Positions 12,026 to 31,371 of a stretch of 64,000 nucleotides of DNA are shown piece after piece. This stretch comes from Syntrophales bacterium. GTDB lineage: Bacteria > Desulfobacterota > Syntrophia > Syntrophales > UBA2210. The notes under the pieces are model-generated. The model was not told where the DNA came from and made no database searches. It saw nothing but the letters and a program-made list of their open reading frames with translations. Location of the stretch: positions 2,656,001 through 2,720,000 of the forward strand of contig CAXXKT010000001.1 of NCBI GenBank assembly GCA_963662405.2, written 5' to 3'. How positions within the stretch are numbered: the first letter of the stretch is position 1; each line of letters opens with the position of its first letter. Made by a program: the position numbers and the translations under genes.

Positions 12026-12074
12026 GGGACTTCTAATCCGTAGGTCCCGGGTTCGAATCCCTGCTGGCGTACCA
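12026..12074 (+). repeat. att core, 3' half of tRNA-Arg(TCT); right junction of A and left junction of B
   Basis: GGGACTTCTAATCCGTAGGTCCCGGGTTCGAATCCCTGCTGGCGTACCA, identical to 31234-31282; anticodon loop CTTCTAA; no 5' half. Confidence 0.92.
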
Positions 12075-12415: not shown

Positions 12416-12575
12416 AACTCATACCTCCGCCGTCCAAAAATATACAGAAGTTGTTTGAACCGTTTCATGTGTCCTTTCTCTCCAAATCCCGGCTCCGGGA
12501 TCTTCTCAAAAATACCAGGATCAATCTCAACAGAAAGCAAAAAACTAGGTGCTTTTAGCCCTACCGTGGTTTTTC

Positions 12576-12727
12576 TTGACATAATATCTTCATGGGGTTA
12601 GTAGGTTATCAGTTTCGTGATTTGAGGAATATTAAATGTATTTTTGAACAGCTTTAGTGTGGGGGGATTATGGTCTGATCATCAAAGCCCTGTTTCTCAA
12701 ATTGAGAGATGGGGTTTTTATTTTTTG
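12576..12727 (+). promoter_or_regulatory. Promoter-leader-terminator element, copy 1 (ahead of array 1)
   Basis: TTGACA-N17-TA...GATTATGGTCTGA...AAGCCCTGTTTCTC/GAGAGATGGGGTTT + T tract. Confidence 0.7.
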
Positions 12728-12794
12728 TCATTGGATAGATTGAAAAGTTAAAACGGCGAAACAAAATTAATACGGGATGTCCTTGGTTATTAGG

Positions 12795-12815
12795 ATCCCA
12801 TAAACATTGTTGGGC
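12795..12815 (+). other. attI-like site 1
   Basis: CCCATAAACATT-G|TTGGGC; TTGGGC complements GCCCAA of the first attC; resembles attI1 CCCTAAAACAAAGTT. Confidence 0.7.
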
Positions 12816-12831
12816 ATGGAAGAGAAGAATT

Positions 12832-13269
12832 ATGATTGAGCACATCTTAATGGCCTTCATGTGGGTGCTCATCCCGGCCACACTCATCGCCACCCTCGTT
12901 CAAAGCGTACCTTGGACGGACAGAATGAAGAAGAACCTCCTGATGTTCTGTTTCATCCACCCTGGTTGGCTTTTCCCCGTAATCTTCCTTTCGGCTATAC
13001 ATATCGGTGGCTACGCAAGAACGGAGATATCCCCCATTCCGTGGCGCTCATTTTCACATGAACTCATGCTACACGACTTCGGTTCGGCTTGCTTCTCCTT
13101 CGCCACCGTGTCGACTGTCTCGTTGTGGTGCTTCTGGACGGGGGCAAACGCGTGGTTTCTTCATCACCCACAGATGGACAAAACGAAGAGGGTTATGGCG
13201 CATGTAATCAACTTGCTCTTCGGGCTCATTGTGACACAACCCGATAACCCGATTTACAGAATACTATAA
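12832..13269 (+). CDS. Cassette 1: small multi-pass membrane protein
   Basis: About 4 hydrophobic segments; followed by attC. Confidence 0.75.
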   Translation: MIEHILMAFMWVLIPATLIATLVQSVPWTDRMKKNLLMFCFIHPGWLFPVIFLSAIHIGGYARTEISPIPWRSFSHELMLHDFGSACFSFATVSTVSLWCFWTGANAWFLHHPQMDKTKRVMAHVINLLFGLIVTQPDNPIYRIL

Positions 13270-13271
13270 AT

Positions 13272-13330
13272 GCCCAACAACAGGCTTGACGGCACGCGAT
13301 AAACCGCGCCCGTCAACCTGAGCGTTAAAG
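13272..13330 (+). repeat. attC site 1 (59 bp)
   Basis: GCCCAAC...imperfect palindrome...GTTAAAG. Confidence 0.88.
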
Positions 13331-13349
13331 CTATAAGGAACAAGATGAT

Positions 13350-14102
13350 ATGAAGAGTCTTGGAGAACTCAATTTCTTGGAATACTTGGGACATGAGGAG
13401 CGTAACCTATTGAGCAGCATTGTCAACTGGAAGTCGGAATTCGACCTATTTTTCAATCTGGACAGAATATTTCAAGAACCACTCCGACGAATAACTGTGT
13501 CTTCTGGACCAGTGATTGTTTCCCAATTGTATCTATTTGTTCACTTTTATCTTTACTTTTCGGCAAGTTGTCTCTTTCGATGCCATCTTTCGGAGGCCTT
13601 TTCCTCCTTGAGAAAGGCCATTGATGCTTCTCTCTGTGCCTATAAGATGATTCTAAACCCAGAGAGCGAGCGCGCCTATTTAGAGCGGGACAAGTATTTT
13701 CAGTATATTAAGTCGAACATTCAAAGAGAAATCAAGAAAGATACATCCCTCTACCCTCTCGCCCACGAACTGATCTCCATTCATGACATGTGCAGCGAGT
13801 ATGGGTCGCACTCTGACATTAGCTCGTTTTTTCATCGGCTGGAACGGAAAGAAACAGAAGACGAAAAGAGCAACATGATCTTACTGTACTATTTTCAGTT
13901 TCCGAGAAACGAGGAAGAATTTCGATTCTACTACCTTTCCATGCTTCAGGCCTTCTACTCCATGTTCCTAATCTTTAAGCCATTCCTAAACGAGAACCTG
14001 AAAATAATAGACCCAAAGTGGGAATCAACTATTGATCATCTTGGTCCTTTGCTCAACAAACTAAGGAAGGCAAGCTATGAGAAATTCGGGAAGAACCCCT
14101 AA
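13350..14102 (+). CDS. Cassette 2: all-helical protein, DUF5677/HEPN-like
   Basis: EAFSSLRKAID and HDMCSEYGSH motifs. Confidence 0.55.
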   Translation: MKSLGELNFLEYLGHEERNLLSSIVNWKSEFDLFFNLDRIFQEPLRRITVSSGPVIVSQLYLFVHFYLYFSASCLFRCHLSEAFSSLRKAIDASLCAYKMILNPESERAYLERDKYFQYIKSNIQREIKKDTSLYPLAHELISIHDMCSEYGSHSDISSFFHRLERKETEDEKSNMILLYYFQFPRNEEEFRFYYLSMLQAFYSMFLIFKPFLNENLKIIDPKWESTIDHLGPLLNKLRKASYEKFGKNP

Positions 14103-14164
14103 CCAGTCGTTCCACCGGATCGGCGGGGAAAAGCAATCGCCTCCCGGTGAGCTCTTTATTAGCA
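14097..14164 (+). repeat. attC site 2 (core degenerate, ATT instead of GTT)
   Basis: CCCTAAC...CACCGG/CCGGTG stem...ATTAGCA; TTAGCA complements TGCTAA of the next attC. Confidence 0.75.
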
Positions 14165-14183
14165 AATTTAATGGAGTAGCAAA

Positions 14184-14864
14184 ATGATATGCCCACACTG
14201 CAATTGCAACTTTTGGGAAGACTGGACTGATTCAGATACACTTGTTTGGAATGATGAGAACATAGGGCAAGGTATCCAACATACTGCTTGCCCAAATTGT
14301 AATAGGCTCATTGTTAAAGTATATGAAGGAAAGGTTAATGTTCATGGTGAAGTGTTTGAAATAAATGATGATGACGAGTTGCCAGTTGATTATAGCGAGT
14401 TTTTGGTTTATCCGAATCAATCCAAATTAGAGCTTCCTGAAGAAATCCCGGAAAAATATAAAGCGGATTATATTGAAGCCATGGCCGTTGTTGAAATTAG
14501 CCCAAAGGCATCAGCCGCAATCAGTCGGCGTCTTTTGCAGAACCTCTTACAAGATGAGTTGGGAATTAAAGGGACAAATCTTTCAAGGCAAATCGATACA
14601 TTTTTAGAAACGCCCAACATACCTTCCCATCTGTCTAAATCTGTTGATGCTATCAGAAATATAGGGAATTTTGCTGCGCATCCGAATAAAGAAACAAAAA
14701 CTGGGGAACTAATCAACGTTGAACCAGGCGAGGCCGATTGGTTGCTTGAAGTTCTCTTATCTCTATTTGATTTTCAATTTATTCAACCAAAGAGAATTGA
14801 AAAGAGACGGAATGATTTAAACACAAAGCTGAGAAGCATGGGAAAACCCGAAATGAAGGGATAG
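14184..14864 (+). CDS. Cassette 3: DUF4145 (HEPN-like) protein with N-terminal Zn ribbon
   Basis: CPHC...CPNC; SPKASAAISRRLLQ; IRNIGNFAAH. Confidence 0.85.
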   Translation: MICPHCNCNFWEDWTDSDTLVWNDENIGQGIQHTACPNCNRLIVKVYEGKVNVHGEVFEINDDDELPVDYSEFLVYPNQSKLELPEEIPEKYKADYIEAMAVVEISPKASAAISRRLLQNLLQDELGIKGTNLSRQIDTFLETPNIPSHLSKSVDAIRNIGNFAAHPNKETKTGELINVEPGEADWLLEVLLSLFDFQFIQPKRIEKRRNDLNTKLRSMGKPEMKG

Positions 14865-14868
14865 TTTT

Positions 14869-14964
14869 TGCTAACCTAGCACTTCAAAAGAAAGCGAGGG
14901 CGGGGCGACCGTGCAAAATTGAATATCTGTATCGCCCTGACTTCTGGTGAGTTTACTGTTCGCA
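14869..14964 (+). repeat. attC site 3 (96 bp)
   Basis: TGCTAAC...GTTCGCA; stem partly degenerate. Confidence 0.65.
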
Positions 14965-14980
14965 GGAAAAGGTAACAAAA

Positions 14981-15700
14981 ATGTCTAGATTTTTAACAAC
15001 ATTTAGAGAACTTGAAAAAATTATACATTCTGAATACGCTTCTTTAGATTTAAAATGCTGGGAAGAGTATGAAATAGATAAAAAACATCCGCTTACATTT
15101 TTTACTGAAGAGATAAGAGATATTAGTCCAATTAATCCTTTTAATTGGTATGAATTTATCACAGAAATTGAATTCCTAAGTAAAGATTTAAAGTATTATA
15201 CGACTATTCTCTTTCTTTTAAGACCTTTTATAAATAACCCTTTACGAGAAGATAAAACATACTATCAAACGATTGAAGATAACAGATACATGAGTTATGT
15301 TAGTATGCTTTATCAGATTATTTATAATTATTGGGATAGACTGGGTGATTTTTTATTTTACTTCATTGAAACAGGGCTGAAGGAAAGAAATGTGTATTTC
15401 TCCACCGTAATAACAAGTATTTCCGAGGATTTTAAAGAATCAGTTAATTACCAAAAATTGTTGAAAATATATGTTGAGTATCTGAAAGAGCTTTTTGACA
15501 ATAGAAAAAACATTGTACATTACTTACAAATATCTGCAAAAATGTTTTCTGGAACATTTCTTCATCATAACGATGAAAAGAAACTTCTTGAAATGGAAAA
15601 AGAGAAAAACGGATATCCTGATTTTTTTCAAAAACACTTGGAACTAAGTTTGGAAGGATTTGAGTATTCTGTTAAACTTGTCAGTGAGTCGAAGACGTAG
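14981..15700 (+). CDS. Cassette 4: Cthe_2314-like HEPN protein
   Basis: YNYWDRLGDFL and NRKNIVH (RxxxxH). Confidence 0.75.
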   Translation: MSRFLTTFRELEKIIHSEYASLDLKCWEEYEIDKKHPLTFFTEEIRDISPINPFNWYEFITEIEFLSKDLKYYTTILFLLRPFINNPLREDKTYYQTIEDNRYMSYVSMLYQIIYNYWDRLGDFLFYFIETGLKERNVYFSTVITSISEDFKESVNYQKLLKIYVEYLKELFDNRKNIVHYLQISAKMFSGTFLHHNDEKKLLEMEKEKNGYPDFFQKHLELSLEGFEYSVKLVSESKT

Positions 15701-15712
15701 ATTTTGATTGCC

Positions 15713-15767
15713 TGCTAACCACAAAATTCGGGGGACGGATTCCCGCCCCTGATTTTAGGCGTTGCTG
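15713..15767 (+). repeat. attC site 4 (55 bp), last of array 1
   Basis: TGCTAAC-CACAAAATTCGGGGGACGG...CCGCCCCTGATTTTAGGC-GTTGCTG. Confidence 0.82.
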
Positions 15768-15806
15768 ATTACCAATTGATCTTGCCCCGAAAAAGTGGAC
15801 ACCCCA

Positions 15807-16655
15807 CTAAGTTACACACGCTTTTCGTTCAAACTCAGCGGGAGAGCAATAATTCAATGATGAATGTCTTCTAACGCAATTATAGAAAACTTCGATATAT
15901 TCGAATATGCTCCCGCGAGCTTCCTGTCTTGTCTGATACTTCTCAAAATAAACAAGCTCCGTCTTTAAGGTATGGAAAAACGATTCCATAAGAGCATTGT
16001 CGTAACAATTCCCCGAAGAGTTCATGCTCTGAATAAAACCATATTTCTCCATCAGCCCCTGAAAAGCATAGCTGGTATATTGAGTTCCACGATCTGAATG
16101 AAACATAACACCAGCTTTGGGTCGCCGCTGCCTGATCGCCTTGTGCAAGGCATCTGCAAGAATCTTATGACTCAATCTGTTATCCATCGACCATCCAATA
16201 ATCTTACGATTGAAAACATCCAGGATCGCTGCCAGATAAAGCCAACCCTCTCTCGTCCAAATAAGGGTAATATCAGAAACCCACACCTTGTTGGCCACAT
16301 CTGTCGAAAATCTCCGATTTAAAAGATTATCCGCCACTAAAAACTCATGCTTGGATTTTTTGGTGGCCTTGAACCTGCGTTTCGTCTTTGCCTTAATCCC
16401 ATGACTCTTCATCAGGTGAGCCACTCGTTTCCTGCTACACTTAATCCCGTGGGCCTGAAGTTCCGCTGTCACCCTCGGGCTACCATATGTGCCGCGACCC
16501 TTTATGAAAGCGTCCCGAATATACATCAGCAACCGCTCATTCTCTCTCTGGCGGTCACTCTTGCTGTGTTTCCCCCATATGTAATAACCGCTCCTGGATA
16601 CCCCCAGCACTCGGCACATCTTCTTCACCGAAAATTCGGAACGGTGATTTTCCAT
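15807..16655 (-). CDS. IS3 transposase OrfB (DDE)
   Basis: WVSDIT, HSDRGTQY, DNALMESFF; in -1 frame after the A7G slippery site near 16699-16706. Confidence 0.93.
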   Translation of the reverse strand: MENHRSEFSVKKMCRVLGVSRSGYYIWGKHSKSDRQRENERLLMYIRDAFIKGRGTYGSPRVTAELQAHGIKCSRKRVAHLMKSHGIKAKTKRRFKATKKSKHEFLVADNLLNRRFSTDVANKVWVSDITLIWTREGWLYLAAILDVFNRKIIGWSMDNRLSHKILADALHKAIRQRRPKAGVMFHSDRGTQYTSYAFQGLMEKYGFIQSMNSSGNCYDNALMESFFHTLKTELVYFEKYQTRQEARGSIFEYIEVFYNCVRRHSSLNYCSPAEFERKACVT

Positions 16656-16666
16656 GAACTCATACT

Positions 16667-16969
16667 TTACTTTGGGTGTTTCGAGAAGATGGCCAACGCT
16701 TTTTTTAAGATTTCCCTCTCCTCCCTTAAGCTCTCATTCTCCCGCCGCAACCGACGAAGTTCCTCCTCAGGTGCCTTCAAATGACCTTTCCCGGGAAAAG
16801 CTTGCTCCATGTCCGCCCGATATTTACGCCTCCACTGATGAAGCAGGTTTTTATGAACATTCAAATCCTTAGCTAGATCACTTACAGAACGTTTACCTTC
16901 ATCCATTAACCGAATCGCCTCATACTTAAACTCCCGATCAAAATACCGCTTATCCTTCCCATTAACCAT
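16667..16969 (-). CDS. IS3 transposase OrfA
   Basis: FDREFKYEA...HTH...EREILKKA; RBS GAGGAGG. Confidence 0.9.
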   Translation of the reverse strand: MVNGKDKRYFDREFKYEAIRLMDEGKRSVSDLAKDLNVHKNLLHQWRRKYRADMEQAFPGKGHLKAPEEELRRLRRENESLREEREILKKALAIFSKHPK

Positions 16970-17220
16970 GACATGCCTCCTCGTTACTCTATGTCTATAA
17001 GAGAAACTCTTCGGTATGTCCACTAAATCGGGGGAAGACCAAATAGTAATCTGCTACGAACAGGCCCATTCAAGTTTTGTTTGTTACAGGAAGAATCGCG
17101 CAGCAAAAGTATTTCTTGGACACTCCTACGGCGATCCTTCCACTCTTCACCTACAAACACTCAGAACAATGCCATAAGAAATTCATTGATTACTGATTGA
17201 AGGTTTCGCAGTGAAATCTC

Positions 17221-17368
17221 TTGACAATACGTCATCATAGAGTTACCTAAATCGTGGTTTTGATCTTGACATTTTTTATGCTTGTGCTGGCTGTACCAAT
17301 TAGGATTATGATCTGATCATTGAAAGCCCTGTTTCTCAAAAAGAGAGATGGGGCTTTTTTGTTTTTTT
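17221..17368 (+). promoter_or_regulatory. Promoter-leader-terminator element, copy 2 (ahead of array 2)
   Basis: TTGACA-N17-TA...GATTATGATCTGA...AAAGCCCTGTTTCTC/GAGAGATGGGGCTTT + T tract. Confidence 0.7.
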
Positions 17369-17556
17369 GGGCAACTTAGAAAATATCGGGGTTACGTGAA
17401 CGCGGAAAAGAGTATTACATAGTTTCTGTATAACACACCTCAATAAACGAAGGTTTTCATAATAATCTTTGTATTACAGTAAGTTGTAATGATTTTTTCC
17501 GCAATTGAAATATGTATTACGTAGCTGTTTCAGCTATGTTTGGTTTTTATACAGAA

Positions 17557-17578
17557 ACAATATAAACACTGTTGCTGC
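17557..17578 (+). other. attI-like site 2
   Basis: AATATAAACACT-G|TTGCTGC; shares ATAAACAYTG with site 1; GTTGCTGC nearly complements GCAGCTAAC of attC5. Confidence 0.68.
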
Positions 17579-17591
17579 ATAAGGAGTGACC

Positions 17592-18479
17592 ATGAAAATC
17601 CCCGTAAGCATAGAACCCGATGAAGAAGGTTATATTGGAAGAGAATGTCCAGTTTGTAAGAAATATTTTAAAGTTAAATTCGGTACTGGGTTGCATGGAG
17701 TGACTGATTGCTATTGCCCATATTGTAATCATAAAGATTCGCAAGATAATTTTTGGACAAGACAACAGATTGAATATGCAAAATCGATAGCCCTTAATCA
17801 AGTCACCAGTGATCTCCTGAAGAGCCTAAAAAAGTTAGAGCGTAGACCAAAACCAAATCAACTTATTTCTATCGGTATAACTGTCAAAGGACAACCAACA
17901 CCGATTATTTACTATTCCGAAGAAGAACTAGAGCAGAAGGTCACGTGTAATCAGTGTACTTTAGAATATGCTATTTATGGAGCATTTGGTTATTGCCCTG
18001 ATTGTGGCATTCATAATTCAAAGCAAATTGTATCTGCAAACTTTGATCTCATATTAAGAATTTTGGCATTATCAGTTAATGCGGAAGGTGACATCAAATC
18101 AAAGTTAATCGAAAACTCTCTAGAAGATGCAGTATCAGCCTTCGACGGTTTTGGCCGTGAACATTACTCAAGTGCATACCCCCAAATATCATTTCAAAGT
18201 ATATCGTTTGCTCAGACAAAAATTCTAACTGATTCCCAGGTTGATATATCTTCTGGCTTGTCTCCAAAGGAATGGGATTTTGTAGTGGAGCAATTTCAGA
18301 AAAGGCACTTGATAGCACACAAAATGGGTATAATCGATGACGAGTTTATAAGAAAAACTGGAACATCATCTTCTTTGGTTGGTAGGAAGGTTTCAATTAC
18401 AGAAGAAGATGTCCGAAAATTTATTTCTTATTTGTTGGTCATAACAGATAATTTACTTACAGGTATTCCACGCAGCTAA
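17592..18479 (+). CDS. Cassette 5: multi-CxxC Zn-binding protein with C-terminal HEPN-like motif
   Basis: CPVC, CPYC, CNQC, CPDC; KRHLIAH (RxxxxH); RBS TAAGGAG. Confidence 0.7.
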   Translation: MKIPVSIEPDEEGYIGRECPVCKKYFKVKFGTGLHGVTDCYCPYCNHKDSQDNFWTRQQIEYAKSIALNQVTSDLLKSLKKLERRPKPNQLISIGITVKGQPTPIIYYSEEELEQKVTCNQCTLEYAIYGAFGYCPDCGIHNSKQIVSANFDLILRILALSVNAEGDIKSKLIENSLEDAVSAFDGFGREHYSSAYPQISFQSISFAQTKILTDSQVDISSGLSPKEWDFVVEQFQKRHLIAHKMGIIDDEFIRKTGTSSSLVGRKVSITEEDVRKFISYLLVITDNLLTGIPRS

Positions 18480-18532
18480 CAACAGCATCCAGACCGACGC
18501 GCTACGTGCGCGGCTGATGCTGAGCGTTCGGT
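18474..18532 (+). repeat. attC site 5 (59 bp)
   Basis: AGCTAAC-AACAGCATCCAG...CTGATGCTGAGC-GTTCGGT. Confidence 0.88.
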
Positions 18533-18545
18533 TTAGATAAAAACT

Positions 18546-19103
18546 ATGCCTCTAAATCATACATCTCAGTTTTCTGAATTAACAGACAAGCAATTTAACC
18601 TAATTGGCAAAATTGTGGTTGAATGGGCCAATGTCGAATTTATGCAAAAACTAATATTAAGCAGGCTTCTATTTTCGGCGGAATTCATTAGTCGGACATA
18701 TACAGATCGAATGAGTGCCGTGAGGATTCAGGACGCAATAAAGGAATCCGTTGATCTTCATCGTCACAGATACTGCGGAGAGATCATAAGTGAAGACATA
18801 TTGTCTGAAATTGAAAAAGTGAATAATGAAGTTCATGATGCAAGAGCACATAGAAATAGATTCGCACACTTTTGCTGGACTCGTAACACAGATGAAGAAA
18901 TTTTTGGTACAAATTTTTCTGCAGGTTTACCAGGTAGCAAAAAATATAGAAAATCCGACATTGTTATAACGAACAAAGAGTTGGAACAGCTCTATAAGGA
19001 ATCATATAATTTGGTGGATAAAATCAATCAACTCATTGAGAAGCTTCCAGAGATTGAGGAAGATGATTTAACAAAAAGACCAAAAACCGAACAACGGCAT
19101 TAA
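18546..19103 (+). CDS. Cassette 6: HEPN-like helical protein
   Basis: IGKIVVEWANVE; HRNRFAH (RxxxxH). Confidence 0.65.
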   Translation: MPLNHTSQFSELTDKQFNLIGKIVVEWANVEFMQKLILSRLLFSAEFISRTYTDRMSAVRIQDAIKESVDLHRHRYCGEIISEDILSEIEKVNNEVHDARAHRNRFAHFCWTRNTDEEIFGTNFSAGLPGSKKYRKSDIVITNKELEQLYKESYNLVDKINQLIEKLPEIEEDDLTKRPKTEQRH

Positions 19104-19148
19104 GGGAGGCGGCACAAAAGCCGCCGCGCCTTATGCCGGGCGTTCGAC
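19086..19148 (+). repeat. attC site 6 (63 bp)
   Basis: ACCGAAC...CGGCATTAAGG/CCTTATGCCG...GTTCGAC; AAACCGAAC exactly complements the cassette start GTTCGGTTT. Confidence 0.88.
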
Positions 19149-19163
19149 ACTATAGGAGAAACG

Positions 19164-20723
19164 ATGAAAACTCTAAAATTACGAGATCTTCAGATAGGTA
19201 ATATTGATGCAAAAAATGAGCTTCTCACTGGTTCAGAACAAGAAATTGATTTTTTCCGCAAGGGCTTCTGTCTTCCACCTAATATAGTGCTCCAGGATTT
19301 TTTAGGTTCAAAAAAATATTATGTGACAGGCTTAAAGGGAATCGGAAAAACAGCACTCTTAAGATATATAGCACTTGAAGCTGAAAGACAGTTTGGTGCC
19401 ACATGTTCATTTATCTTGTTTAAGAGCGATGTAAAAGAGCAAGATCGTAAAGACATCTGTCGCGTCGCTAGGGCCGAATTAATTGAAAAAAATCTCGAAG
19501 ATTATGATGGAAATGATTTTGAAGTTGTTTGGAAATGGTTTTTGCATAGAAAGATAGTTGATACTATTCGAGAATGTAATTTAAAGTTATTTCAAGATGA
19601 CGACAATTTTAGAAAATATGAGAAGTGTGTAACCGCTCCAAAACTTGATGAAAAATCATCCGGGATTAAACGACTAATACCCAACCTAAAAAAGGGTTCT
19701 ATAGAAATTAGTGAAAATCCGAAGATTGGTTTGGATTTTGATTGGGAGGATAAAGGTAAAACTCGTGTTAAGTTTCATAGTCTAACCAAACAAGCTGATC
19801 AACTTTTTCAGGAATTAAGGCCAGCAGATGGACACCTTCGTCTGTTTTTAGATGAATTGGAATTAAGCTTAGGCTCCCAAAAACAGTATAAAAGAGATGC
19901 AACCCTGATCAGAGATTTGATTATAGCTGTTGAGCAAATCAATTCAGTTGCAAAAAAAATGAGATATAACTTAACCATCTATGCTGGAATTCGTTCTGAA
20001 GTTCTTTCCGCAATTGAATCAGTCGGTAAAGAAATAAACAAAATTATTGGTGATTTCGGAAGCCAAATTGTATGGCATCAGTCCGGTTCTGATAATGAAA
20101 ACCACCCGTTGCTCAACATCATTGTTCAGAGAATATCTATCTCGGAAAACACTAATAAATCAGAGCGTGGCAACCTAAAATCTATAATTTGGAATAAATA
20201 TTTTCCAATATCAATTCAGGGAATTAAGTCCGAGAAATATATCCTTCACAATTCATGGTATCGACCTAGGGATATGGTTCGACTTCTTAATCTGGCAAGG
20301 GATCAATTCCCTGATGTAAGTGGGTTCACTCAAAGAGTTTTCGATGGAACACGAAAGCAATACAGTCAAGAAAGCTGGATAGAATTAGCAGAGGAATTAA
20401 GTGTCAAATATTCTCAACAAGAATTAGTCGCCATTCAACAGATATTCAATGGATATAAAAGAGAATTTTCTTTTATAGACCTTCAGGGTCATATCGAAAA
20501 AAGGCGGAAATTATATCCTGCTGTTGATAAGGCTCTGGTATCACATGCAATTGGCGAAATATTAACTGATTTATACAATATTGGATTTGTAGGTAATGTA
20601 ATTTACTCGGGTAGGAGAGGAATTAGTCCTAAAATGCGCTTTAGCTTTAGAGGTGATCCCAATTTGATTATAGAAGAAAAGATCACTGTACATAAAGGTT
20701 TGTATTCCTTTTTTACATTATGA
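19164..20723 (+). CDS. Cassette 7: P-loop ATPase (Sll1717/FunZ-like)
   Basis: IGNIDAKNE, GLKGIGKT Walker A, LFLDELE Walker B, RPRD. Confidence 0.75.
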   Translation: MKTLKLRDLQIGNIDAKNELLTGSEQEIDFFRKGFCLPPNIVLQDFLGSKKYYVTGLKGIGKTALLRYIALEAERQFGATCSFILFKSDVKEQDRKDICRVARAELIEKNLEDYDGNDFEVVWKWFLHRKIVDTIRECNLKLFQDDDNFRKYEKCVTAPKLDEKSSGIKRLIPNLKKGSIEISENPKIGLDFDWEDKGKTRVKFHSLTKQADQLFQELRPADGHLRLFLDELELSLGSQKQYKRDATLIRDLIIAVEQINSVAKKMRYNLTIYAGIRSEVLSAIESVGKEINKIIGDFGSQIVWHQSGSDNENHPLLNIIVQRISISENTNKSERGNLKSIIWNKYFPISIQGIKSEKYILHNSWYRPRDMVRLLNLARDQFPDVSGFTQRVFDGTRKQYSQESWIELAEELSVKYSQQELVAIQQIFNGYKREFSFIDLQGHIEKRRKLYPAVDKALVSHAIGEILTDLYNIGFVGNVIYSGRRGISPKMRFSFRGDPNLIIEEKITVHKGLYSFFTL

Positions 20724-20734
20724 GTGTAAAAAAT

Positions 20735-20807
20735 GTCGAACATCAGCTTGGAGAAGGATACTCATTACGCTGCGCTTCATTCGCACCTCTCAAGCTGGGC
20801 GTGAGAT
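20735..20807 (+). repeat. attC site 7 (73 bp; core GTG instead of GTT)
   Basis: GTCGAAC-ATCAGCTTGGAGAAGG...CCTCTCAAGCTGGGC-GTGAGAT. Confidence 0.85.
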
Positions 20808-20820
20808 TTCGGAGGAAGAT

Positions 20821-21150
20821 ATGGCACTACCTAGCTATAAGGATATCGTCGAACTCCTTAAGAAGGGAGCAACGATTGAGGCTCAAGAAAAGATTATGGA
20901 GCTCCGCGAAGCAGCTCTTGCGCTTCAAGAGGAGAACATTAATTTAAAAAACAAGGTCTTGGAGCTCCAGGGAAAAGTTCGTAAATTAGAATCATTTGAA
21001 GGTGAGCCATGTCCTAAATGTCGAAAACCAGCTTGGGTTGTGGAGTCAAGCAAGCCGGACAGTACGCTTGGTGACCTAGGTGTTATCCGTCGAGTTTATC
21101 GCTGCACTGAATGCGGGTTCTCCGAATCACAATTGGTGACGCCAAAATGA
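20821..21150 (+). CDS. Cassette 8: small coiled-coil + Zn-ribbon protein
   Basis: AQEKIMELREAALALQEEN; CPKC...CTEC; RBS GGAGG. Confidence 0.75.
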   Translation: MALPSYKDIVELLKKGATIEAQEKIMELREAALALQEENINLKNKVLELQGKVRKLESFEGEPCPKCRKPAWVVESSKPDSTLGDLGVIRRVYRCTECGFSESQLVTPK

Positions 21151-21151
21151 A

Positions 21152-21214
21152 ATCTAACCCCACGGTCAATCGGGACGCGCCAAAAGCGGCGCGCCCCTTA
21201 CCTTCACGTTAGGC
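21152..21214 (+). repeat. attC site 8 (63 bp)
   Basis: ATCTAAC...GGGACGCGCC/GGCGCGCCCC...GTTAGGC. Confidence 0.85.
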
Positions 21215-21439
21215 TAAATTTTAAGTCTCATGCAATTATTACTTAATGTTAGCGTATTTTGACCCGATTATGCGAATCCAGTTTGTCGGTTACAATTGAA
21301 ATGGCAATGATCACACGGTTATTGTTGCCGCCGTGGCATGCCTTGCTGTTTGGCAATTTTTGGATAAGCAGGAAAAGGCAACCGTCACAGATGGTGGGCA
21401 ATAATCGATAAAATAGCGTATAGCCAAGCTTGGCGGAAT

Positions 21440-23935
21440 ATGAGTAACGATTTAATAAGAAACAACCATTACGTCCCTATTTGGTATCAAAAGAATTTCT
21501 TATCTTCAAAGAAAGCGGCTTTCCATTACCTCAACCTTTATCCGGATAAAATTGAATTACCTAACGGCAAAGTAAATTTTAAAAATCAGATATGTTGGCC
21601 ATTCTCTCCTAAACAGTGTTTCTATCAAACTGATTTATACACGACTTCTTTTCTGGGTTATCGAAACGACGAAATCGAACGTTACCTTTTTGGTAAAATA
21701 GATAGCGATGGATCAATAGCCATTAAAGCATTAATGGACCTGAATTATCGTTTATTCCATGACTACTTTCTCAAAGTTTTTGAATACATGGATATTCAAA
21801 AGCTTAGAACACCCAAAGGACTAACATGGTTAAGTCAAAAGTTTTCAATGATTACCCATAATCAGCTTTTGTTTGAGATGCAGAAGATACGAAGGCTGCA
21901 TTGTACATTATGGGCAGAAGCTGTGAAAGAAATTGTTTTGGCCAATAATTCCAAGATAAAGTTTATCGTGTCCGACCATCCAGTGACAGTCTATAATGCG
22001 GCTTGTCCGCCCAACTCAACTGAATGCAAATATCCAAACGACCCTAGAATTGAAATGCAGGGAACACAAACGATTTTCCCTCTGGATTCCAATCGATGTC
22101 TAATTTTAACAAATTTGGATTATGCTAAAAACCCCAGTTTGCAGAACCTTAAAAAATATAGACCAAATCCAAATCCTTTTCGAAACACAATGATCAGATA
22201 TGATAACATCATTAATGAGAGAGAATTATCAGAAGATGATGTTGCGCATATCAACTGGATAATTAAGTCTCGCGCATCACAATATTTAGCTGCCGAAGAA
22301 AAGGAGTGGCTATTCCCAGAAAACAGGGTTTGTCCCGATTGGGCCAAATGCGGTCAAGTGCTAATACCTCCCAGTAATAAGCTTTATAAATTTGGAGGTG
22401 AGATATACGTTGGATACGAAGATGGTTCATCTGCATACTTTGACCAATATGGACGAAGAGAACCAGAATCGGAATTTTTAAGGAAAAAGCAAAAAGCTGG
22501 AAAAATAGGAGCAAATGACCCTTGCCCATGCGGAAGCGGAAAAAAATATAAGAAATGTTGCAGAGATAAACCTGTTGATGAACGGCCCGCCAGTGACGTT
22601 CTAAGTATTCGTGAGCGCAACCTATTTTTTCTCGACATCGTTACAGGAATTTTGGGGGTGAATAGGAGCGGAGACTTAGACTGGGATGAGCTACGTAGAA
22701 ATTTAACCAATGAAAAAATTGCAGAGATATATAAGGCGGTCGCAGCATTATGGCCGCCATCTACTGATTTATTTGCACTTCTCCCAAGACCAGACTCTAA
22801 TGTCCTGAGAGCTTTGTTTACAGGTATAATTGACCCACGTGTGACGTATATAAGCATGGCCTGTTTTTCCTTTTATGCAGACGAGATTTTAGTTCAAAGT
22901 CCTTTTGCAAACCCACACAACATGAGGGAAGAATTTAATCCTATAAAAAACCCTGGGAAATATAGGGATGAAACAATAAAAAACCTGTTTTTCTTATTTT
23001 TAATAATTCCGTGGATTGAAATTGGCGTGATTAATTTATTCCCAGACCCGTGGAATTTTAATTTCGCATTGATGGAGACCGTTATGGAGGCAGCTGAAAA
23101 AAGGAAAGATTCGATAACCTTCGATGAAAAATCATTCAAACAAATGGAAAAATTGTTCTTTGAAGACTATAAACGAACTTTATTCACAATGCCGGATAAA
23201 AACCTTCGGGCTTTTATTCGCCATACATCTCAAGACCTCTCAGAAGAAGAAATATCTAAGCTTATCGAATATACTAAACGAATGAATGCTCAAGATCCGC
23301 TTGTGGATCTGAATCCTGATAAGCCAGGAAAAGAATCAAGCCAGATGCTAATATCACGCACAACTCCAAACATGGAAATGACAATGCTTCTGGCACAAGC
23401 AACTGGTTCAATGATAATAACAGACAATTCTTTCAGGTGGTTTGAAATATGCTCATCAATTCCTTACTACTATGGCCTCAGCAAAAACCCCTGGGCTAAA
23501 TTTGAAACCTTCGCATCTGATTATCCTGTTCAGTTTCCATTGATCGTTGAACAACTATCCCACATGCAGGAGCTAAAGAAATCAGAATTCATGTCTGTAA
23601 AGAGGGTGCTAAAACGATTGTGGAATTCCATTAATGCGGATCAGGCACCAGATAATGCTCAGATTGATCATTTGCAAGAGGAGTTTGATATCGCTCAAGA
23701 GGTAATGTCTAAATCAATCGAAAAATTGGTCCAAAAAGGTGAAAAGGCTACCGACACATCTCCTTACCCAAGGCCAATGAACATAGACGCAAAATTGAGT
23801 TGCAAAATATCACCGATTGGGCATATCAATAATTTGGTATATCGATTATTGATAAGCTATGCGGGACATGATAAGTACCTTAAATCGCTTCCATTGTCTC
23901 TGTATGTAGAATATGGAAACAAGGAGAGAGCCTAA
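21440..23935 (+). CDS. Cassette 9: DUF4238 + SEC-C motif protein (831 aa)
   Basis: NHYVPIWYQKNF, FIVSDHPV, IFPLDS; KIGANDPCPCGSGKKYKKCC. Confidence 0.82.
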   Translation: MSNDLIRNNHYVPIWYQKNFLSSKKAAFHYLNLYPDKIELPNGKVNFKNQICWPFSPKQCFYQTDLYTTSFLGYRNDEIERYLFGKIDSDGSIAIKALMDLNYRLFHDYFLKVFEYMDIQKLRTPKGLTWLSQKFSMITHNQLLFEMQKIRRLHCTLWAEAVKEIVLANNSKIKFIVSDHPVTVYNAACPPNSTECKYPNDPRIEMQGTQTIFPLDSNRCLILTNLDYAKNPSLQNLKKYRPNPNPFRNTMIRYDNIINERELSEDDVAHINWIIKSRASQYLAAEEKEWLFPENRVCPDWAKCGQVLIPPSNKLYKFGGEIYVGYEDGSSAYFDQYGRREPESEFLRKKQKAGKIGANDPCPCGSGKKYKKCCRDKPVDERPASDVLSIRERNLFFLDIVTGILGVNRSGDLDWDELRRNLTNEKIAEIYKAVAALWPPSTDLFALLPRPDSNVLRALFTGIIDPRVTYISMACFSFYADEILVQSPFANPHNMREEFNPIKNPGKYRDETIKNLFFLFLIIPWIEIGVINLFPDPWNFNFALMETVMEAAEKRKDSITFDEKSFKQMEKLFFEDYKRTLFTMPDKNLRAFIRHTSQDLSEEEISKLIEYTKRMNAQDPLVDLNPDKPGKESSQMLISRTTPNMEMTMLLAQATGSMIITDNSFRWFEICSSIPYYYGLSKNPWAKFETFASDYPVQFPLIVEQLSHMQELKKSEFMSVKRVLKRLWNSINADQAPDNAQIDHLQEEFDIAQEVMSKSIEKLVQKGEKATDTSPYPRPMNIDAKLSCKISPIGHINNLVYRLLISYAGHDKYLKSLPLSLYVEYGNKERA

Positions 23936-24002
23936 CATCAGCTTGGAGAAGGATACTCATTTCGCTGCGCTCCACTCGCACCTCTCAAGCTGCGCGTTAC
24001 TG
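23930..24002 (+). repeat. attC site 9 (73 bp), last of array 2; near-identical to attC7
   Basis: GCCTAAC...GTTACTG; AGCCTAAC complements the cassette start GTTAGGCT. Confidence 0.88.
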
Positions 24003-24087
24003 ATTACGAAAAGAAATATACTATCATTCGGTCCCAATTGGTTCCCTTGAGTACAGGAAGCAGTGCTTGCCATACTTTCCACTCTCA

Positions 24088-24213
24088 CTACCCCCTTCCC
24101 ACCAGACCATCAAACAGCCCCTTCACCCTGGGCCTCAACGCCTCATACTCTTCCAGGAAAAATTCTTTCTTCGTCTTCCCTAGGTAGCGACCCTTCTTCG
24201 TGTGAATGTCGAA
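24088..24213 (-). pseudogene. Possible 3' remnant of a protein-coding gene
   Basis: FDIHTKKGRYLGKTKKEFFLEEYEALRPRVKGLFDGLVGRG*; no start found. Confidence 0.35.
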
Positions 24214-24476: not shown

Positions 24477-25016
24477 TCAGAAGGGCCTTATCCGGTTCAT
24501 AATCTCCTTGCTTTCAAGATACATCATATTGTCCCGTGTAACCGGAACATTCATTTCCCGGCCAACATCACGAATCGCATTTTCGATCGCGATGATTTCA
24601 GCACCAAGATCGTCAAGGCGCCGATTAAAAATCTCCTCTTGGGATCGCCGATACCTCGCGACTATTGTGTGAAGATCCCGTTTTAGATCCTCTTCAATCG
24701 GGTTGGCCTGTGTTTCCAGATCGGGGAGAATATCGTCTGATATTTCAGTAACCCACCGTTCCACACTTTGGAGACTTGCTGTTAGGCGTATCTCTTCCTG
24801 ATGCAAAGCCTCCGGATCGTTACCTTTGAGGATTGCATTTTTCATTTCGCCACGAACCTTCCTCAGCTCTTCCGTCAGTGCTTTCTTCTTTGCCTCAGCT
24901 TCTGCCAGATGCTTCCGTGCATTGCCTTCCTGCTTCCTCAGGCTTTCCCGCGTTTTGAGAAGGTTGTTAAATTCCTTATTCCCACCGATGATCTCTTTCA
25001 ATTTGTTTTGGTTCAT
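24477..25016 (-). CDS. Coiled-coil hypothetical protein (satellite late module)
   Basis: RBS AAGGAG; heptad-rich. Confidence 0.7.
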   Translation of the reverse strand: MNQNKLKEIIGGNKEFNNLLKTRESLRKQEGNARKHLAEAEAKKKALTEELRKVRGEMKNAILKGNDPEALHQEEIRLTASLQSVERWVTEISDDILPDLETQANPIEEDLKRDLHTIVARYRRSQEEIFNRRLDDLGAEIIAIENAIRDVGREMNVPVTRDNMMYLESKEIMNRIRPF

Positions 25017-25047
25017 GTGTCATTGCTCCTTTAATTTAGTAGTTTGA

Positions 25048-25326
25048 TTATTTAGCCGCTACGGCCATGTTGTGCTGATCGTGATACTTCTCAAAAACGA
25101 GCGGGAGCACATCTTCCCCGCCGGCGGCGATCCGGTCTTGATACTTTGCATACAGTCCGGGATATCGCTTCCGGGCTTCAAGAAGGGCATCTTGCCGGGA
25201 CATACCCCGTCCGTAAAAATGCCCAACGGCGATTTCATAGAATTCATGTTCTCCGCCCTGAACTTTCCATTTCTGGTACATCTCCTTGACTGCTTCGTTT
25301 AGTGTATTCCTTTCCCTGTCATTCAT
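25048..25326 (-). CDS. Hypothetical protein (92 aa)
   Basis: RBS GGAGGT before ATG 25326. Confidence 0.65.
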   Translation of the reverse strand: MNDRERNTLNEAVKEMYQKWKVQGGEHEFYEIAVGHFYGRGMSRQDALLEARKRYPGLYAKYQDRIAAGGEDVLPLVFEKYHDQHNMAVAAK

Positions 25327-25340
25327 GTCTCTCCACCTCC

Positions 25341-25721
25341 TTAAGGGTTTATGTGCTCTCGAATTAAGGCCGCTATAACGCGGGACAAATCTTGATAGTC
25401 CTGGTTTTCTTTTTGAAAGGTTTGCACCTCCGGCAATAGAGCGCTGGCATCTCTGTACTTTTTCGGATTCAAATGCTGTGCAAATGCAATACAAATTCCC
25501 GCGTTGTATGAGGTAAGCAACCCGTGGATCTCATCGGGTGGGTTTGTTTTGTAATTTTGAAGCCAATCCCAGCATTCATCAGGGTCAAAAAGCCATGCAA
25601 CACCGCGGCCTCCTTTAACCCGGTACGGCATGCCCGCCCGGAGATATCTGTTAAGCGTGAACATGGAACATTCCAGTTCGTCGCACAAATGCTGCTTGTT
25701 CATTAACCCTTCAGTTTCCAT
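25341..25721 (-). CDS. Terminase small subunit-like (lambda Nu1-type winged HTH)
   Basis: MNKQHLCDELECSMFTLNRYLRAGMPYRVKGGRGVAWLFDPDECWDW resembles the Nu1 N-terminus; directly downstream of the cos-like site. Confidence 0.65.
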   Translation of the reverse strand: METEGLMNKQHLCDELECSMFTLNRYLRAGMPYRVKGGRGVAWLFDPDECWDWLQNYKTNPPDEIHGLLTSYNAGICIAFAQHLNPKKYRDASALLPEVQTFQKENQDYQDLSRVIAALIREHINP

Positions 25722-25844
25722 GAGAAGTAAGCTCCTTTCCCTCTGTGATTTTTTCAGACGCGAGGTTTCCAGGGAAAAAATGTTTTTTTATCCCCCCACA
25801 GATATTATGATTTGCAAGGGGTTAAAAATTGTTCTGTACCTAGG

Positions 25845-25902
25845 TGAAAATCGGGGGTCTGTGCTCCGTATAGGACCCCTTATCCCAGGAAGGACCCGTA
25901 AA
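25845..25902 (-). other. Lambda-like cos site of island B
   Basis: Minus strand TTTACGGGTCCTT (13 nt identical to the lambda cosQ context); GGGTCCT-N20-TACG-GAGCACAGACCC-CCGATTTTC. Confidence 0.7.
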
Positions 25903-25995
25903 ATAATGACCCGACAATTCTGATTGTGAAACCCATGCAAAAAGCCCCGGCAGCGTACAGAAGTAGTTCAATCGCTGTTTTCATTTTTCCCCCAC

Positions 25996-27600
25996 TCATC
26001 GATACCAGTTCCCAGCCCTTACGAATCTGTAACCTTGGTGAACTTCAAAATTGATCTTGTTCAGTGACGGCATCGGGTCCGCCTCTCGGAAGCGATTCTT
26101 CACAATTTCAAATTTCCCCCACTCCAAGGAAAGGGCAAGAGTAGCGGCCTTGATAGAGTACACGCCCCCGGTCCCCATCGTTGCACCTGGTTTCTTCTGA
26201 ATCGTTATGAGAGCAGTTCCCTTGTTCAGTCGTCGGATAATGGCACTGATGACACCATGGATATTGAAAGCTCGTTCCCCTTCGGGTTCCAAATAATCAA
26301 CAACGTTGAATGCATCCGGTTGGATCTTATCGGCAATGTTGTTGAAGTCCCATTGATCGATAACTTTCATTCCCTTTGCCCACTCTTCAATGGGAATGGG
26401 GAAATGGGAGAGCTTTTGTTTCAATGCTTCCGGTCCCATCTCGCTGTTGAAATAGTAGGTGGGAAATTCCTTCATGTTCGAGGCAATGGCATTAAAGGCA
26501 AAGAGGGTCTTTCCCATACCCGATACACCGGCAACCACAATGACACCCTTCGGAAAGATCTTGGTCTTGTTGTGAAGTCCCAGAGGGAGAGACAGGTTTA
26601 CTGAGTTCCCGATATCGGCATTGAGAAAATCCATGAACTCGATATCGCGTTCAATACGTCGATAGCATCCGCGCCGGTTTCCATGTTTTTCAAGAAGCGG
26701 TTCCGGTCCCTCGCAAAGGCGTTTTAAAGCCATGTGTGCCGCTTGCATTTCTGATCTTGTTGACAGTTGTAACTCTTTGTTGACATCTGTTGACGTGAAG
26801 TTGCCATTTGTTGACAACACCCATTCACGAATTTCAGCGGTAATATTTCGATCGCGTTTTTCAGATCGCTTCAATGCGCTCTCAATCTTTGCACTGATTT
26901 CTATTTCCGGGAATGGTGGTGTACAGTTATTGGCAAGGATATAAAGGACTTGTTTGATGAACTGAAGCTCACCGCCACCTTTTATGAGCAGATTTGCAGC
27001 GTGGAAAAGGTCATCATCGCGGGTCCCTTGATGAAAATATTTGTTGACAGCGTTGACATTGTTGACTTGCGTTGACTCCTGAAAATTGCCCTTATATATA
27101 TTAAAAGATTTTATATTATATAGGGCATCGGGGCACGGTGCTGTTTCCACTTCAAAGATGCTCAGGGCATTCAGCCAGGCATACCGTTGGCCGGTGCCAT
27201 TAACGGAAGGGGGAGCAATGATATAACCTCCCTCACCTCGAACATCAACACCCGGCATAATGCCCGCGGCATTGCCGATGTGCTCCCCCTTCGGATAGAC
27301 AAGATAGATGTGATAGCCTCTCGGGGTTTTTGCGATACACGTTATGAAATTGTCCGGTAAGAGCTCTTGAATCTTCCTGTACGCTTCCTCATTATCGCAG
27401 TCGATAACCAGCACCCCGGATAGCGGACCGGTTACAATCCCGATCATTGCTTTTGGCCATTTTCCCCACCATTGCCTGATCTCTTCCGGTGTTGCTTTCT
27501 TGGTTTGATAGTCGGTCCAGGGGATGTACGGTTTTTTGTCCGGTCTGACAGGTATAACGGACAGTCCAAGATTTTCATATTTGAGGGCATGGCTTAACAT
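25996..27600 (-). CDS. Bifunctional primase-polymerase (prim-pol) fused to a P-loop helicase
   Basis: GLSVIPV, IGIVTG...VIDCD, TPRGYHIY, DVRGEGGYIIAPPS; AGVSGMGKT, VVDY. Confidence 0.88.
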   Translation of the reverse strand: MLSHALKYENLGLSVIPVRPDKKPYIPWTDYQTKKATPEEIRQWWGKWPKAMIGIVTGPLSGVLVIDCDNEEAYRKIQELLPDNFITCIAKTPRGYHIYLVYPKGEHIGNAAGIMPGVDVRGEGGYIIAPPSVNGTGQRYAWLNALSIFEVETAPCPDALYNIKSFNIYKGNFQESTQVNNVNAVNKYFHQGTRDDDLFHAANLLIKGGGELQFIKQVLYILANNCTPPFPEIEISAKIESALKRSEKRDRNITAEIREWVLSTNGNFTSTDVNKELQLSTRSEMQAAHMALKRLCEGPEPLLEKHGNRRGCYRRIERDIEFMDFLNADIGNSVNLSLPLGLHNKTKIFPKGVIVVAGVSGMGKTLFAFNAIASNMKEFPTYYFNSEMGPEALKQKLSHFPIPIEEWAKGMKVIDQWDFNNIADKIQPDAFNVVDYLEPEGERAFNIHGVISAIIRRLNKGTALITIQKKPGATMGTGGVYSIKAATLALSLEWGKFEIVKNRFREADPMPSLNKINFEVHQGYRFVRAGNWYR

Positions 27601-27836
27601 CGAAATCCCCCACCGGCCAATTCAGCTAGGATTATTTTTTCGACTCGTTCCTGCACATCGTCTCCCTTGGAACACTCGGCACACAAGCAATATCTCAGAA
27701 TCCGCGTCTTACCCTTTGTCGCTCCCCAGGATTCAGGATCTTTGGGCACGAAGATTCCGACTATTGCCGGGGGTCCCCCACAGAGGAGGCAAAAATCATC
27801 GGGAAATGGTTTTTGTAGTTTCCGGTGTCCTATCAT
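27594..27836 (-). CDS. Small Cys-rich (Zn-binding) protein
   Basis: CLLC...CLCAEC; overlaps neighbouring ORFs. Confidence 0.6.
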   Translation of the reverse strand: MIGHRKLQKPFPDDFCLLCGGPPAIVGIFVPKDPESWGATKGKTRILRYCLCAECSKGDDVQERVEKIILAELAGGGFRC

Positions 27837-28048
27837 CGTTTTGCCTCCGCGTAGGCAACCAGCCTATCCACCAGCAACGACGGCAACCGGGAGTAGGGAA
27901 GAAAGGTCAAGAGTCCCGCGATCCGAAAGGCCAGCTTCGCTCTCCTGGAATCCCGATTCGCCGTTATTGTTTTCCCCCGATGGAGAGCGGCACCGTATTC
28001 AGAATCAGTGAGAATGATTATCCCGTCGTTTGTTGGGATGCGCTTCAT
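27833..28048 (-). CDS. Hypothetical protein (71 aa)
   Basis: ATGA overlap with the upstream xis-like gene; RBS GAGG. Confidence 0.55.
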   Translation of the reverse strand: MKRIPTNDGIIILTDSEYGAALHRGKTITANRDSRRAKLAFRIAGLLTFLPYSRLPSLLVDRLVAYAEAKR

Positions 28049-28251
28049 GGCCGTTCCTCGATACTGTCCATGGTTTTTACCGGATTCGAAAAAAGCCATG
28101 CTTCAAATTGATCGACACGGTACAAAATCTTTCCATATACTCGAAGGTAAGGAGGCCCCTTCTTTTGACTTCTGTAATTCGCCAGGGTTCCCAGATTCAA
28201 ATTGTAAAACTCCGCTGCTTGCCGTGGTGTGATCGTCCTGCTCTGCATCAT
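28045..28251 (-). CDS. Excisionase/AlpA-like HTH protein
   Basis: ITPRQAAEFYNLNLGTLANYRSQKKGPPYLRVYGKILYRVDQFEAWL; RBS GGAGGTGA. Confidence 0.85.
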   Translation of the reverse strand: MMQSRTITPRQAAEFYNLNLGTLANYRSQKKGPPYLRVYGKILYRVDQFEAWLFSNPVKTMDSIEERP

Positions 28252-28280
28252 GTCACCTCCATGTTTTTCCCGTATGCTCA

Positions 28281-28297
28281 TTGCTATCTCCGTGCCA
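28281..28297 (-). promoter_or_regulatory. sigma54 -24/-12 promoter of the xis-primase operon
   Basis: TGGCAC-GGAGA-TAGCAA (GG-N10-GC), about 30 nt before the xis start. Confidence 0.8.
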
Positions 28298-28405
28298 CAC
28301 AAAAAAAGGCAATTAGGTATAGATCTAATCGCCCGTAATTAAAGCAAATCCTTGTTGATAAGGTTTAATTCACGCCATGGAGGCTTTCCGAAAAATATCG
28401 TGGCA

Positions 28406-28443
28406 GTGACCGTTACTCGTCACAAGTGACGCCTGGCGGTCAC
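28406..28443. promoter_or_regulatory. Tandem enhancer (UAS) palindromes
   Basis: GTGAC-N8-GTCAC at 28406-28423 and 28426-28443, 20 bp apart, 110-145 bp upstream of the sigma54 promoter. Confidence 0.7.
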
Positions 28444-29807: not shown

Positions 29808-29812
29808 GCTTA

Positions 29813-31233: not shown

Positions 31234-31282
31234 GGGACTTCTAATCCGTAGGTCCCGGGTTCGAATCCCTGCTGGCGTACCA
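31234..31282 (+). repeat. att core (right junction of B), displaced 3' half of tRNA-Arg(TCT)
   Basis: Identical to 12026-12074. Confidence 0.92.
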
Positions 31283-31293
31283 TATAGATACGT

Positions 31294-31371
31294 GGTGGGT
31301 GTAGCTCAGTTGGTTAGAGTGCCTGGTTGTGGCCCAGGAGGTCGCCGGTTCAAATCCGGTCACTCACCCCA
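31294..31371 (+). tRNA. tRNA-His(GTG)
   Basis: G-1, acceptor GTGGGTG/CACTCAC, anticodon arm CCTGG-TTGTGGC-CCAGG, TTCAAAT loop, encoded CCA. Confidence 0.96.

Follow-up and report, generated by a model that had tools for sequence, protein, structure and literature searches.

Integrase-less cassette arrays of a Syntrophales bacterium begin at attI-type sites and end in a separate multi-copy repeat

Introduction

When the cassettes of an integron-type array are deleted on paper, do the two rejoined flanks represent a site that ever existed? This question is raised by a 64,000-nt stretch of the genome of a Syntrophales bacterium (GenBank assembly GCA_963662405.2, contig CAXXKT010000001.1, positions 2,656,001–2,720,000; referred to here as the window, G000:C1:2656001-2720000), in which nine attC sites mark off two arrays of gene cassettes. 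An earlier note on this DNA had reconstructed an empty attI site from each array, and had proposed that one platform was duplicated or captured twice and that each copy then acquired cassettes independently. We found that one architecture is common to both arrays: each begins at an attI-type site yet ends where its last attC joins a separate repeat of approximately 65 nt, R, that occurs in many copies. For this reason, the "empty site" of the paper reconstruction likely combines two elements, as a hybrid, and does not represent one duplicated platform, and attI likely does not extend into the shared right flank. Our preferred explanation, to which we assign a probability of roughly 0.55, is that these are integrase-less arrays of the attI type whose last attC was joined to R, which is likely a secondary target of the distant integrase (IntI) of the same host. 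Positions without a prefix are those of the window (Table 1), and G, L, and C followed by a number denote genomes, loci, and contigs, respectively.

Similarity of the flanks and structure of the junctions

The crossover Gs are 12809 and 15761 for array 1, and 17571 and 23996 for array 2. The flanks were compared after the deletion of an IS3-family insertion sequence (IS; 15777–17041) and one copy of its 3-bp target duplication. Without gaps, the right flanks were identical at 21/28 positions after the G (22/28 if the G is counted as position 1), at 40/65, and at 46/80, and the nonamer that the earlier note had placed 56 nt past the crossover G was found at that distance in both arrays (17085 and 24052). 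None of 200,000 shuffles attained 21/28 or 40/65 (p < 1e-4), and when the first 6 nt were omitted, the remaining match of 16/22 had p = 1.5e-5. The left flanks were identical at 9/13 positions (p = 0.004), 8/12 without the G (p = 0.026), and 14/30, with similarity at the background level farther out. These results confirm that the two sites are alike on both sides of the crossover; both flanks are members of multi-copy families in the genome.

All nine attC sites were confirmed, and core and inverse core paired at 5–7 of 7 positions in eight cassettes, including 7/7 in cassette 1, starting at G/TT. In cassette 5, the pairing was 3/7, which fits if one base is missing. The first 7 nt of R1, the copy of R behind array 1, and of cassette 5 are identical (15761–15767 and 17571–17577), and together with the one-base gap this could be the trace of a shifted crossover. 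attC7 (20739–20802) and attC9 (23934–23997) are 94% identical across 64 nt, and a close relative of them stands before R in L068. The first attC finder used gave 1,083 matches, was too noisy, and was dropped; a covariance model built on the nine attC sites matched few others (13). All four junctions were spanned, as assembled, by contigs from public runs, and no crossover-point joint was seen in the contigs of four public runs, an outcome that carries no weight at a depth of 2–6, since rare variants drop out of contigs.

The left flank: attI and the intI genes

The host genome carries one intact intI gene (C1:2211990-2212934; 471 bits, no stops), 456 kb from the arrays, and one split intI gene (C1:30608-31553). 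Downstream of each, in the same orientation, lie the left-flank motif and cassettes; in the intact integron, an IS separates intI from attI. The last 10 nt of the array-1 attI are identical to the attI of the intact integron, and the preceding 5-mer is shared as well. Directly past the stop of the broken intI (C1:30.6k), the DNA has 94% identity with the 165 nt that lead up to the array-2 crossover, and 201 nt of the array-2 spacer and attI are 97% identical to the intI-less site at C2:287957. In array 2, a leader, the post-intI spacer, and attI follow one another, and intI is missing. The two integrases of the window were considered as the cassette enzyme and rejected, their scores on TIGR02249 being 40.8 and 91.1 bits (cut-off 265).

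An exact 12-mer search of the genome gave 10 attI sites. From a profile search, 16 sites were retained, one match in unrelated DNA having been dropped and the array-1 site added; the latter is the most divergent of the retained sites (15.6 bits; range, 15.6–34.8). In L173, L174, and L175, where IntI is 73–79% identical to that of the host, the motif lies 183–188 nt behind a same-direction intI. Among the 17 intI-like loci examined, the motif was present at the host's locus and at these three, and the other 13 were without it (L182 ends at a contig edge). By these comparisons, the left half of both arrays is a genuine integron attI-type site, and the attI consensus offered in the earlier note holds for the left 15–25 nt. 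Its right part is a dispersed repeat. In class 1 integrons, attI likewise lies left of the crossover (PMC12901181), and recombination withstood changes in the right part of attI1 (10.1101/2022.09.11.507474). Since substitutions are tolerated there, the conservation of 65 nt in R is not accounted for by selection on attI.

The right flank: a dispersed repeat

With an iterated profile, 32 copies of R were identified in the genome above the best score on the reversed genome (11.9). A model from 16 copies had matches in 27/38 family genomes, and in the relatives' loci, for which nearly all listed matches were fetched, the number of distinct copies with a score of ≥ 14 was 91. R starts where an attC ends in 8/32 of the host's copies and in 12/86 of the relatives' copies with enough upstream DNA, compared with 0/469 control positions; the threshold used to call attC-joined copies probably misses some joints.

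The earlier note had taken the right flank as platform sequence, and this did not stand. The best attI score in front of the relatives' 91 copies was 1.3, compared with 15.6–34.8 for the retained sites, so no attI was found there. R was not found directly after attI at the 16 sites of the host or at 16 + 13 sites of relatives (two overlap); the best R score was −6, and on inspection an ordinary cassette follows that attI. No R was found behind the intI-bearing arrays within 40 kb and 30 kb (best score 0.5). R has native left flanks of its own. For 103 copies, no attC joint was called; the junction reads GTT in 27 of them (background 99/2005, 4.9%), and 22 carry one of three recurrent non-integron left flanks, including 8 of the type of R1's nearest relatives and 8 of the type of the nearest relatives of R2, the copy behind array 2. 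In unjoined relatives of R1 (5) and R2 (6) from several genomes, conservation reaches ∼25 nt leftward past the junction in an alignment whose rows were hand-picked from the nearest relatives, whereas in attC-joined copies the conservation on the left stops exactly at G/TT. Because the conservation breaks at this point, the natural pre-insertion state of R is, as far as the alignment tells, native left flank plus R, and not attI plus R. For attG sites, GWT targets and excision at nearby sites have been described (10.1101/2022.09.11.507474), and in those relatives of R1 and R2 that are unjoined, the junction reads GTT.

R was also considered as a structured RNA or hairpin and rejected, with no consensus pairs in 16 copies and fold z-scores of 0.1 and 1.4. 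A terminator hairpin regularly preceding R was dropped as weak (14/102 versus 5/96). The Rfam models matched only tRNA in the window, with one chance-level match in three loci. A marine-sediment contig matches 24097–24213 with one difference, the match starting just past the R2 tail.

Kinship of the two arrays and searches for empty sites

The duplication of one platform was not borne out by the kinship of the halves. By similarity to R1, R2 stands 19th among 122 copies (5th among the 31 in the genome); by similarity to R2, R1 stands 45th (8th). The attI sites of the two arrays are 0.42 alike over 45 nt, which is the lowest value for the attI of array 2 and near the lowest for that of array 1. 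Over 45 nt, the attI of array 2 is identical to that at C2:287957, where R is 0.55 like R2; this R is 0.86 like the R of the module at C1:158k, which has another attI type. Across 11 modules paired by eye, the left and right similarities were uncorrelated (Mantel rho = 0.13, p = 0.22). The uncoupling of the halves, like the anatomy, copy numbers, and contexts of the elements, is read directly from the genomes, and the two arrays appear to be independently assembled modules that stand in tandem on a satellite-like island.

We searched for the empty consensus site, as the earlier note had suggested, and found none that carried R. There was no empty attI–R site in the host genome; 339 genomes of the class, with two mismatches allowed, gave one match, in another family (the R model was not applied); and 12 exact matches in GTDB contigs and 5 matches in metagenomes all failed the R profile (R scores −44 to 5 and −33 to −26, respectively). 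The patterns were strict, the collection scans being exact, and divergent empty sites can be missed. These negative results lower the case for platform duplication and do not close it, because empty sites may be rare or transient.

The leader element and the recurrent module

Both arrays are preceded by a leader element, U (U1 and U2). The U family has 62 hidden Markov model matches in the genome and matches in 27/36 family genomes, for which the query also contained parts of R and the spacer. The 3′ part is complete in 39 copies; in 31 of these, a two-codon open reading frame (ORF), preceded by a purine-rich stretch, lies just before a terminator-like hairpin, and 9 have attI within 300 nt. 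The leaders of intI genes have an anatomy like that of U (two-codon ORF and terminator-like hairpin), and the L173 intI leader scored 14.1 bits on the U model, which 0/200 shuffles reached. In two arrays of G011 (L220 and L221), which are without an integrase gene, the post-intI spacer and attI come directly after an intI-type leader. A related Prim-Pol island, L202 (G020:C2:426000-445900), carries U joined directly to a spacer of the array-2 type, and an attI-like site; beyond the latter are an integrase-like and transposase-like gene pair and then a cassette.

From its anatomy, U is a candidate translation-coupled attenuator, and may have promoter activity. A reading of U as a sigma-70 consensus promoter was rejected: despite a conserved TTGACA box, the scan gave no consensus site there, and U1 has no consensus −10 box at its position. 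Covariation in the U hairpin was found at 1/20 pairs.

A same-strand U lies within 10 kb upstream of 16/32 R copies, compared with an opposite-strand U in 4. Seven of the 14 intI-less attI sites have R directly after the cargo, and the order U, attI, cassettes, R was seen in the relatives' loci L020, L113, L131, L161, and G016:C39, and in other genera too. Because of these three observations, U-attI-cassettes-R is a recurrent module. U, cargo, and R also occur together without any integron part.

Several other observations concern U. A third full copy in the window (51733–51956) stands ahead of an ORF near 52016, with no attI, and a partial U-like hairpin lies at 40615–40740 (minus strand) together with a 28-nt stretch resembling attC6 in reverse orientation. 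Copies of U start ∼30–180 nt from tRNA 3′ ends at C1:1880770, C1:2335767, C1:2539178, and C2:323317, and a U-like element also precedes small accessory genes in the viral contig L188. A two-recombinase element with short terminal inverted repeats (C1:131300-133410 and 159780-161940; the first in L011) is flanked by short direct repeats, which in one case lie where R ends and in the other at the U-start motif. An element that is presumably IS110-like, judging from its N-terminus, lies in the U-start motif there and at C1:305-306k.

Weighing the explanations

Under our preferred explanation, the platforms would have arisen by the loss of intI from same-direction integrons, and the intact IntI, encoded 456 kb away, would have loaded them in trans. 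Trans loading is supported because an ORF-less cassette that is repeated in the intact array is also the first cassette at the intI-less C2:287957 site. The attC–R joint would have been made by recombination between attC and a secondary, attG-type site, with either the deletion of the intervening DNA or the integration of an array-bearing circle, and such joining would have occurred several times, with different R subtypes. The following points weigh against this explanation. The recombination between attC and R is deduced from sequence, and no event was caught. R lacks the right motif of attG hot spots (+6 to +9, described for E. coli). Of the attC–R joints, 13/20 are in register 0/+1, which a coherent ancestral attI–R platform would also fit, and the 7/14 intI-less attI sites with R directly after the cargo count on the same side. 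The leader of L001 scored only 3.0 bits on the U model, and those of L174 and the broken intI had no match. Finally, the Mantel sample was small and hand-paired, and the models of the R, attI, and U families were trained on copies that they score. The off-register joints (+3, +7, −2) were rejected as a sign of several crossovers, since register jitter, or slippage within a short internal repeat, can account for them.

We regard it as somewhat unlikely that an ancestral family of empty attI–R platforms spread together with the leader, and that recombination by IntI between arrays later swapped the arms. R ends 7/14 intI-less attI sites and 0/2 intI-bearing ones, there is a single dominant attC–R register, and the layout is repeated in the five relatives' loci named above, all of which this history would accommodate; it is opposed by the lack of an empty site in the host genome, the class genomes, the GTDB contigs, and the metagenomes, by native left flanks of R that are not attI, and by the 65 conserved nt that selection on attI leaves unexplained. 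Other features are what would be expected if R were the 5′ end of a "platform cassette," in which R, tail, leader, and attI, with or without cassettes, are moved by IntI like a cassette, so that one longer array would have received R1-U2-attI2 as an insertion, and R2 would be what is left of another unit. R lies 119–135 nt upstream of a same-strand U in four of the host's and three of the relatives' copies, and just upstream of attI at C1:133k (with the recombinase-pair element discounted) and in G016:C39. In addition, attC4 and attI2 bound 15762–17571, attC4 and attC9 bound 15762–23996, and attI-terminated cassettes recombine in class 1 integrons (PMC12901181). However, the other three R–U units of the host were not called attC-joined, no U stands behind most R copies, and 30/39 complete U copies are without attI within 300 nt; we therefore consider this explanation quite improbable.

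A core-like GTT stands directly after the last attC at 20 loci, as it would if R were the start of a common, decayed ordinary cassette. This explanation is very improbable and largely refuted: R has no attC of its own, unlike an ordinary cassette with its 3′ attC, the downstream DNA varies, 24/32 of the host's and 74/86 of the relatives' copies were not called attC-joined, R is absent from both complete arrays, and in unjoined copies the conservation continues leftward across the junction. The right flanks are thus very probably not the 5′ end of a truncated common cassette either, which is what the earlier note had named as the finding that would undo its own proposal.

Features of the window and island context

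Table 1. Positions of the arrays, their flanking elements, and the island that carries them.
Feature	Position	Strand	Remarks
tRNA-Arg(tct) 3′ part, left boundary repeat	12026..12074	+	49-nt exact repeat with 31234-31282
Leader U1, 5′-degenerate	12520..12728	+	TTGACA box; two-codon ORF 12670-12678; terminator-like hairpin 12684-12718
attI of array 1	12793..12815	+	Core box and left half, the latter up to crossover G 12809
Cassettes 1-4 (array 1)	12810..15761	+	attC 13272-13330, 14097-14164, 14869-14964, 15713-15767
Repeat R1	15762..17094 (15762-15776 + 17045-17094)	+	Split by IS3
IS3-family element	15777..17041	-	rve/HTH_21/HTH_Tnp_1 matches; 3-bp target duplication
R1-U2 tail	17095..17147	+	Four further genome copies, 88-96% identity
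Leader U2	17148..17367	+	TTGACA box; two-codon ORF 17308-17316; terminator-like hairpin 17322-17358
Post-intI spacer and attI of array 2	17409..17577	+	Crossover G 17571
Cassettes 5-9 (array 2)	17572..23996	+	attC 18474-18532, 19086-19148, 20735-20807, 21152-21214, 23930-24002
Repeat R2 and short tail	23997..24091 (R2 23997-24061)	+	Tail ends in motif also ending R1 tail
Satellite-like core	24477..31003	-	Small-terminase-like ORF, Prim-Pol/helicase, excisionase-like helix-turn-helix, sigma54-type AAA, phage-type integrase (not IntI)
Right boundary repeat, tRNA-Arg 3′ part	31234..31282	+	Then tRNA-His 31295-31371

The arrays occupy the cargo end of a 19-kb island flanked by 49-nt tRNA-Arg repeats. 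The island has repeats at a tRNA end, an integrase, an excisionase, a primase-helicase, and a small-terminase-like gene (weak match, E = 1e-4), which we take to be the features of phage satellites resembling phage-inducible chromosomal islands. No relatives of the Prim-Pol protein were found in viral contigs. An intact tRNA-Arg(tct) (C1:2626343) and a tRNA-His lie 30 kb before the window, and a second tRNA-His lies past the island; the repeated tRNA-Arg 3′ parts and the second tRNA-His suggest tandem elements at one site. The 3-bp length of the target duplication of the IS3-family element was confirmed by two further full copies of this IS in the genome, each with a 3-bp duplication, one of which is of a different triplet.

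Among the nine cargo proteins, there were two strong PADLOC matches (PD-T7-4 and PDC-M14A). The gene of cassette 3 is PD-T7-4/DUF4145-like, and the cargo of array 2 includes PDC-M14A-like, Sll1717-type ATPase, and DUF4238/SEC-C genes. Judged from these protein matches, the cargo is a candidate for defence-like function.

Relation to known systems and significance

attC clusters that lack an integron-integrase (CALIN) have been described as having ≥ 2 attC sites and no intI nearby, with an integrase elsewhere in the replicon and mobilisation in trans proposed (Cury et al., 2016, PMC4889954; also PMC11389934). The two arrays, with 4 and 5 attC sites and no intI nearby, are CALIN in this sense, and not complete integrons, in which intI stands beside attI; the nearest IntI is that at C1:2211990-2212934. 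Unlike the CALIN of PMC4889954, the arrays here keep attI and a leader, many end in one conserved repeat, and the layout is repeated about a dozen times in one genome and across the family. An attI-bearing CALIN on a prophage is already published: in the Shewanella prophage M16-3 (PMC9892861), attI heads an integrase-less array on a phage-type element, as it does here. That is a single case with intI on the same prophage, in contrast to the intI 456 kb off, the tandem arrays, and the satellite-like carrier described here.

The attC–R joint resembles attG sites (Loot et al., 10.1101/2022.09.11.507474) in its GWT crossover and in the joining of attC to non-att DNA, with hot spots and excision at nearby sites in that system; it differs in that the putative target is a conserved dispersed repeat in many genomes, without the right motif of the hot spots. 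As in the Delta-attI-type cassettes (PMC12901181), a unit that ends in attI instead of attC can recombine. Those cassettes consist of an ORF and a shortened attI, whereas R1-U2-attI2 has no long ORF and carries a leader and a full-length post-intI spacer. In the literature searched, which included few subscription journals, we found no multi-copy module of leader, attI, cassettes, and repeat.

The origin of CALIN has been left open, most of them being without an intI pseudogene (PMC4889954). This family of genomes offers a concrete route, in which the clean loss of intI between the leader and attI is combined with an end point that is used repeatedly. For an IntI clade that is as yet uncharacterised, it supplies a candidate attI consensus, and R may be a naturally occurring, conserved hot spot of the attG type. 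The arrays also caution that the removal of cassettes on paper need not restore a site that ever existed. It is possible, but unlikely, that these are family-wide integrase-less "satellite integrons" spread by IntI, in which the unit R-leader-attI-cassettes-attC would be excised and reinserted as a super-cassette, R would serve as both its 5′ end and the landing pad of the next unit, and a two-codon-ORF attenuator derived from an intI leader would gate the cargo. If so, a single integrase would sustain the evolution of at least a dozen defence arrays carried by islands and phage satellites. More generally, if the arrays stay loadable in trans, phage satellites would renew their defence-like cargo without carrying an integrase for it.

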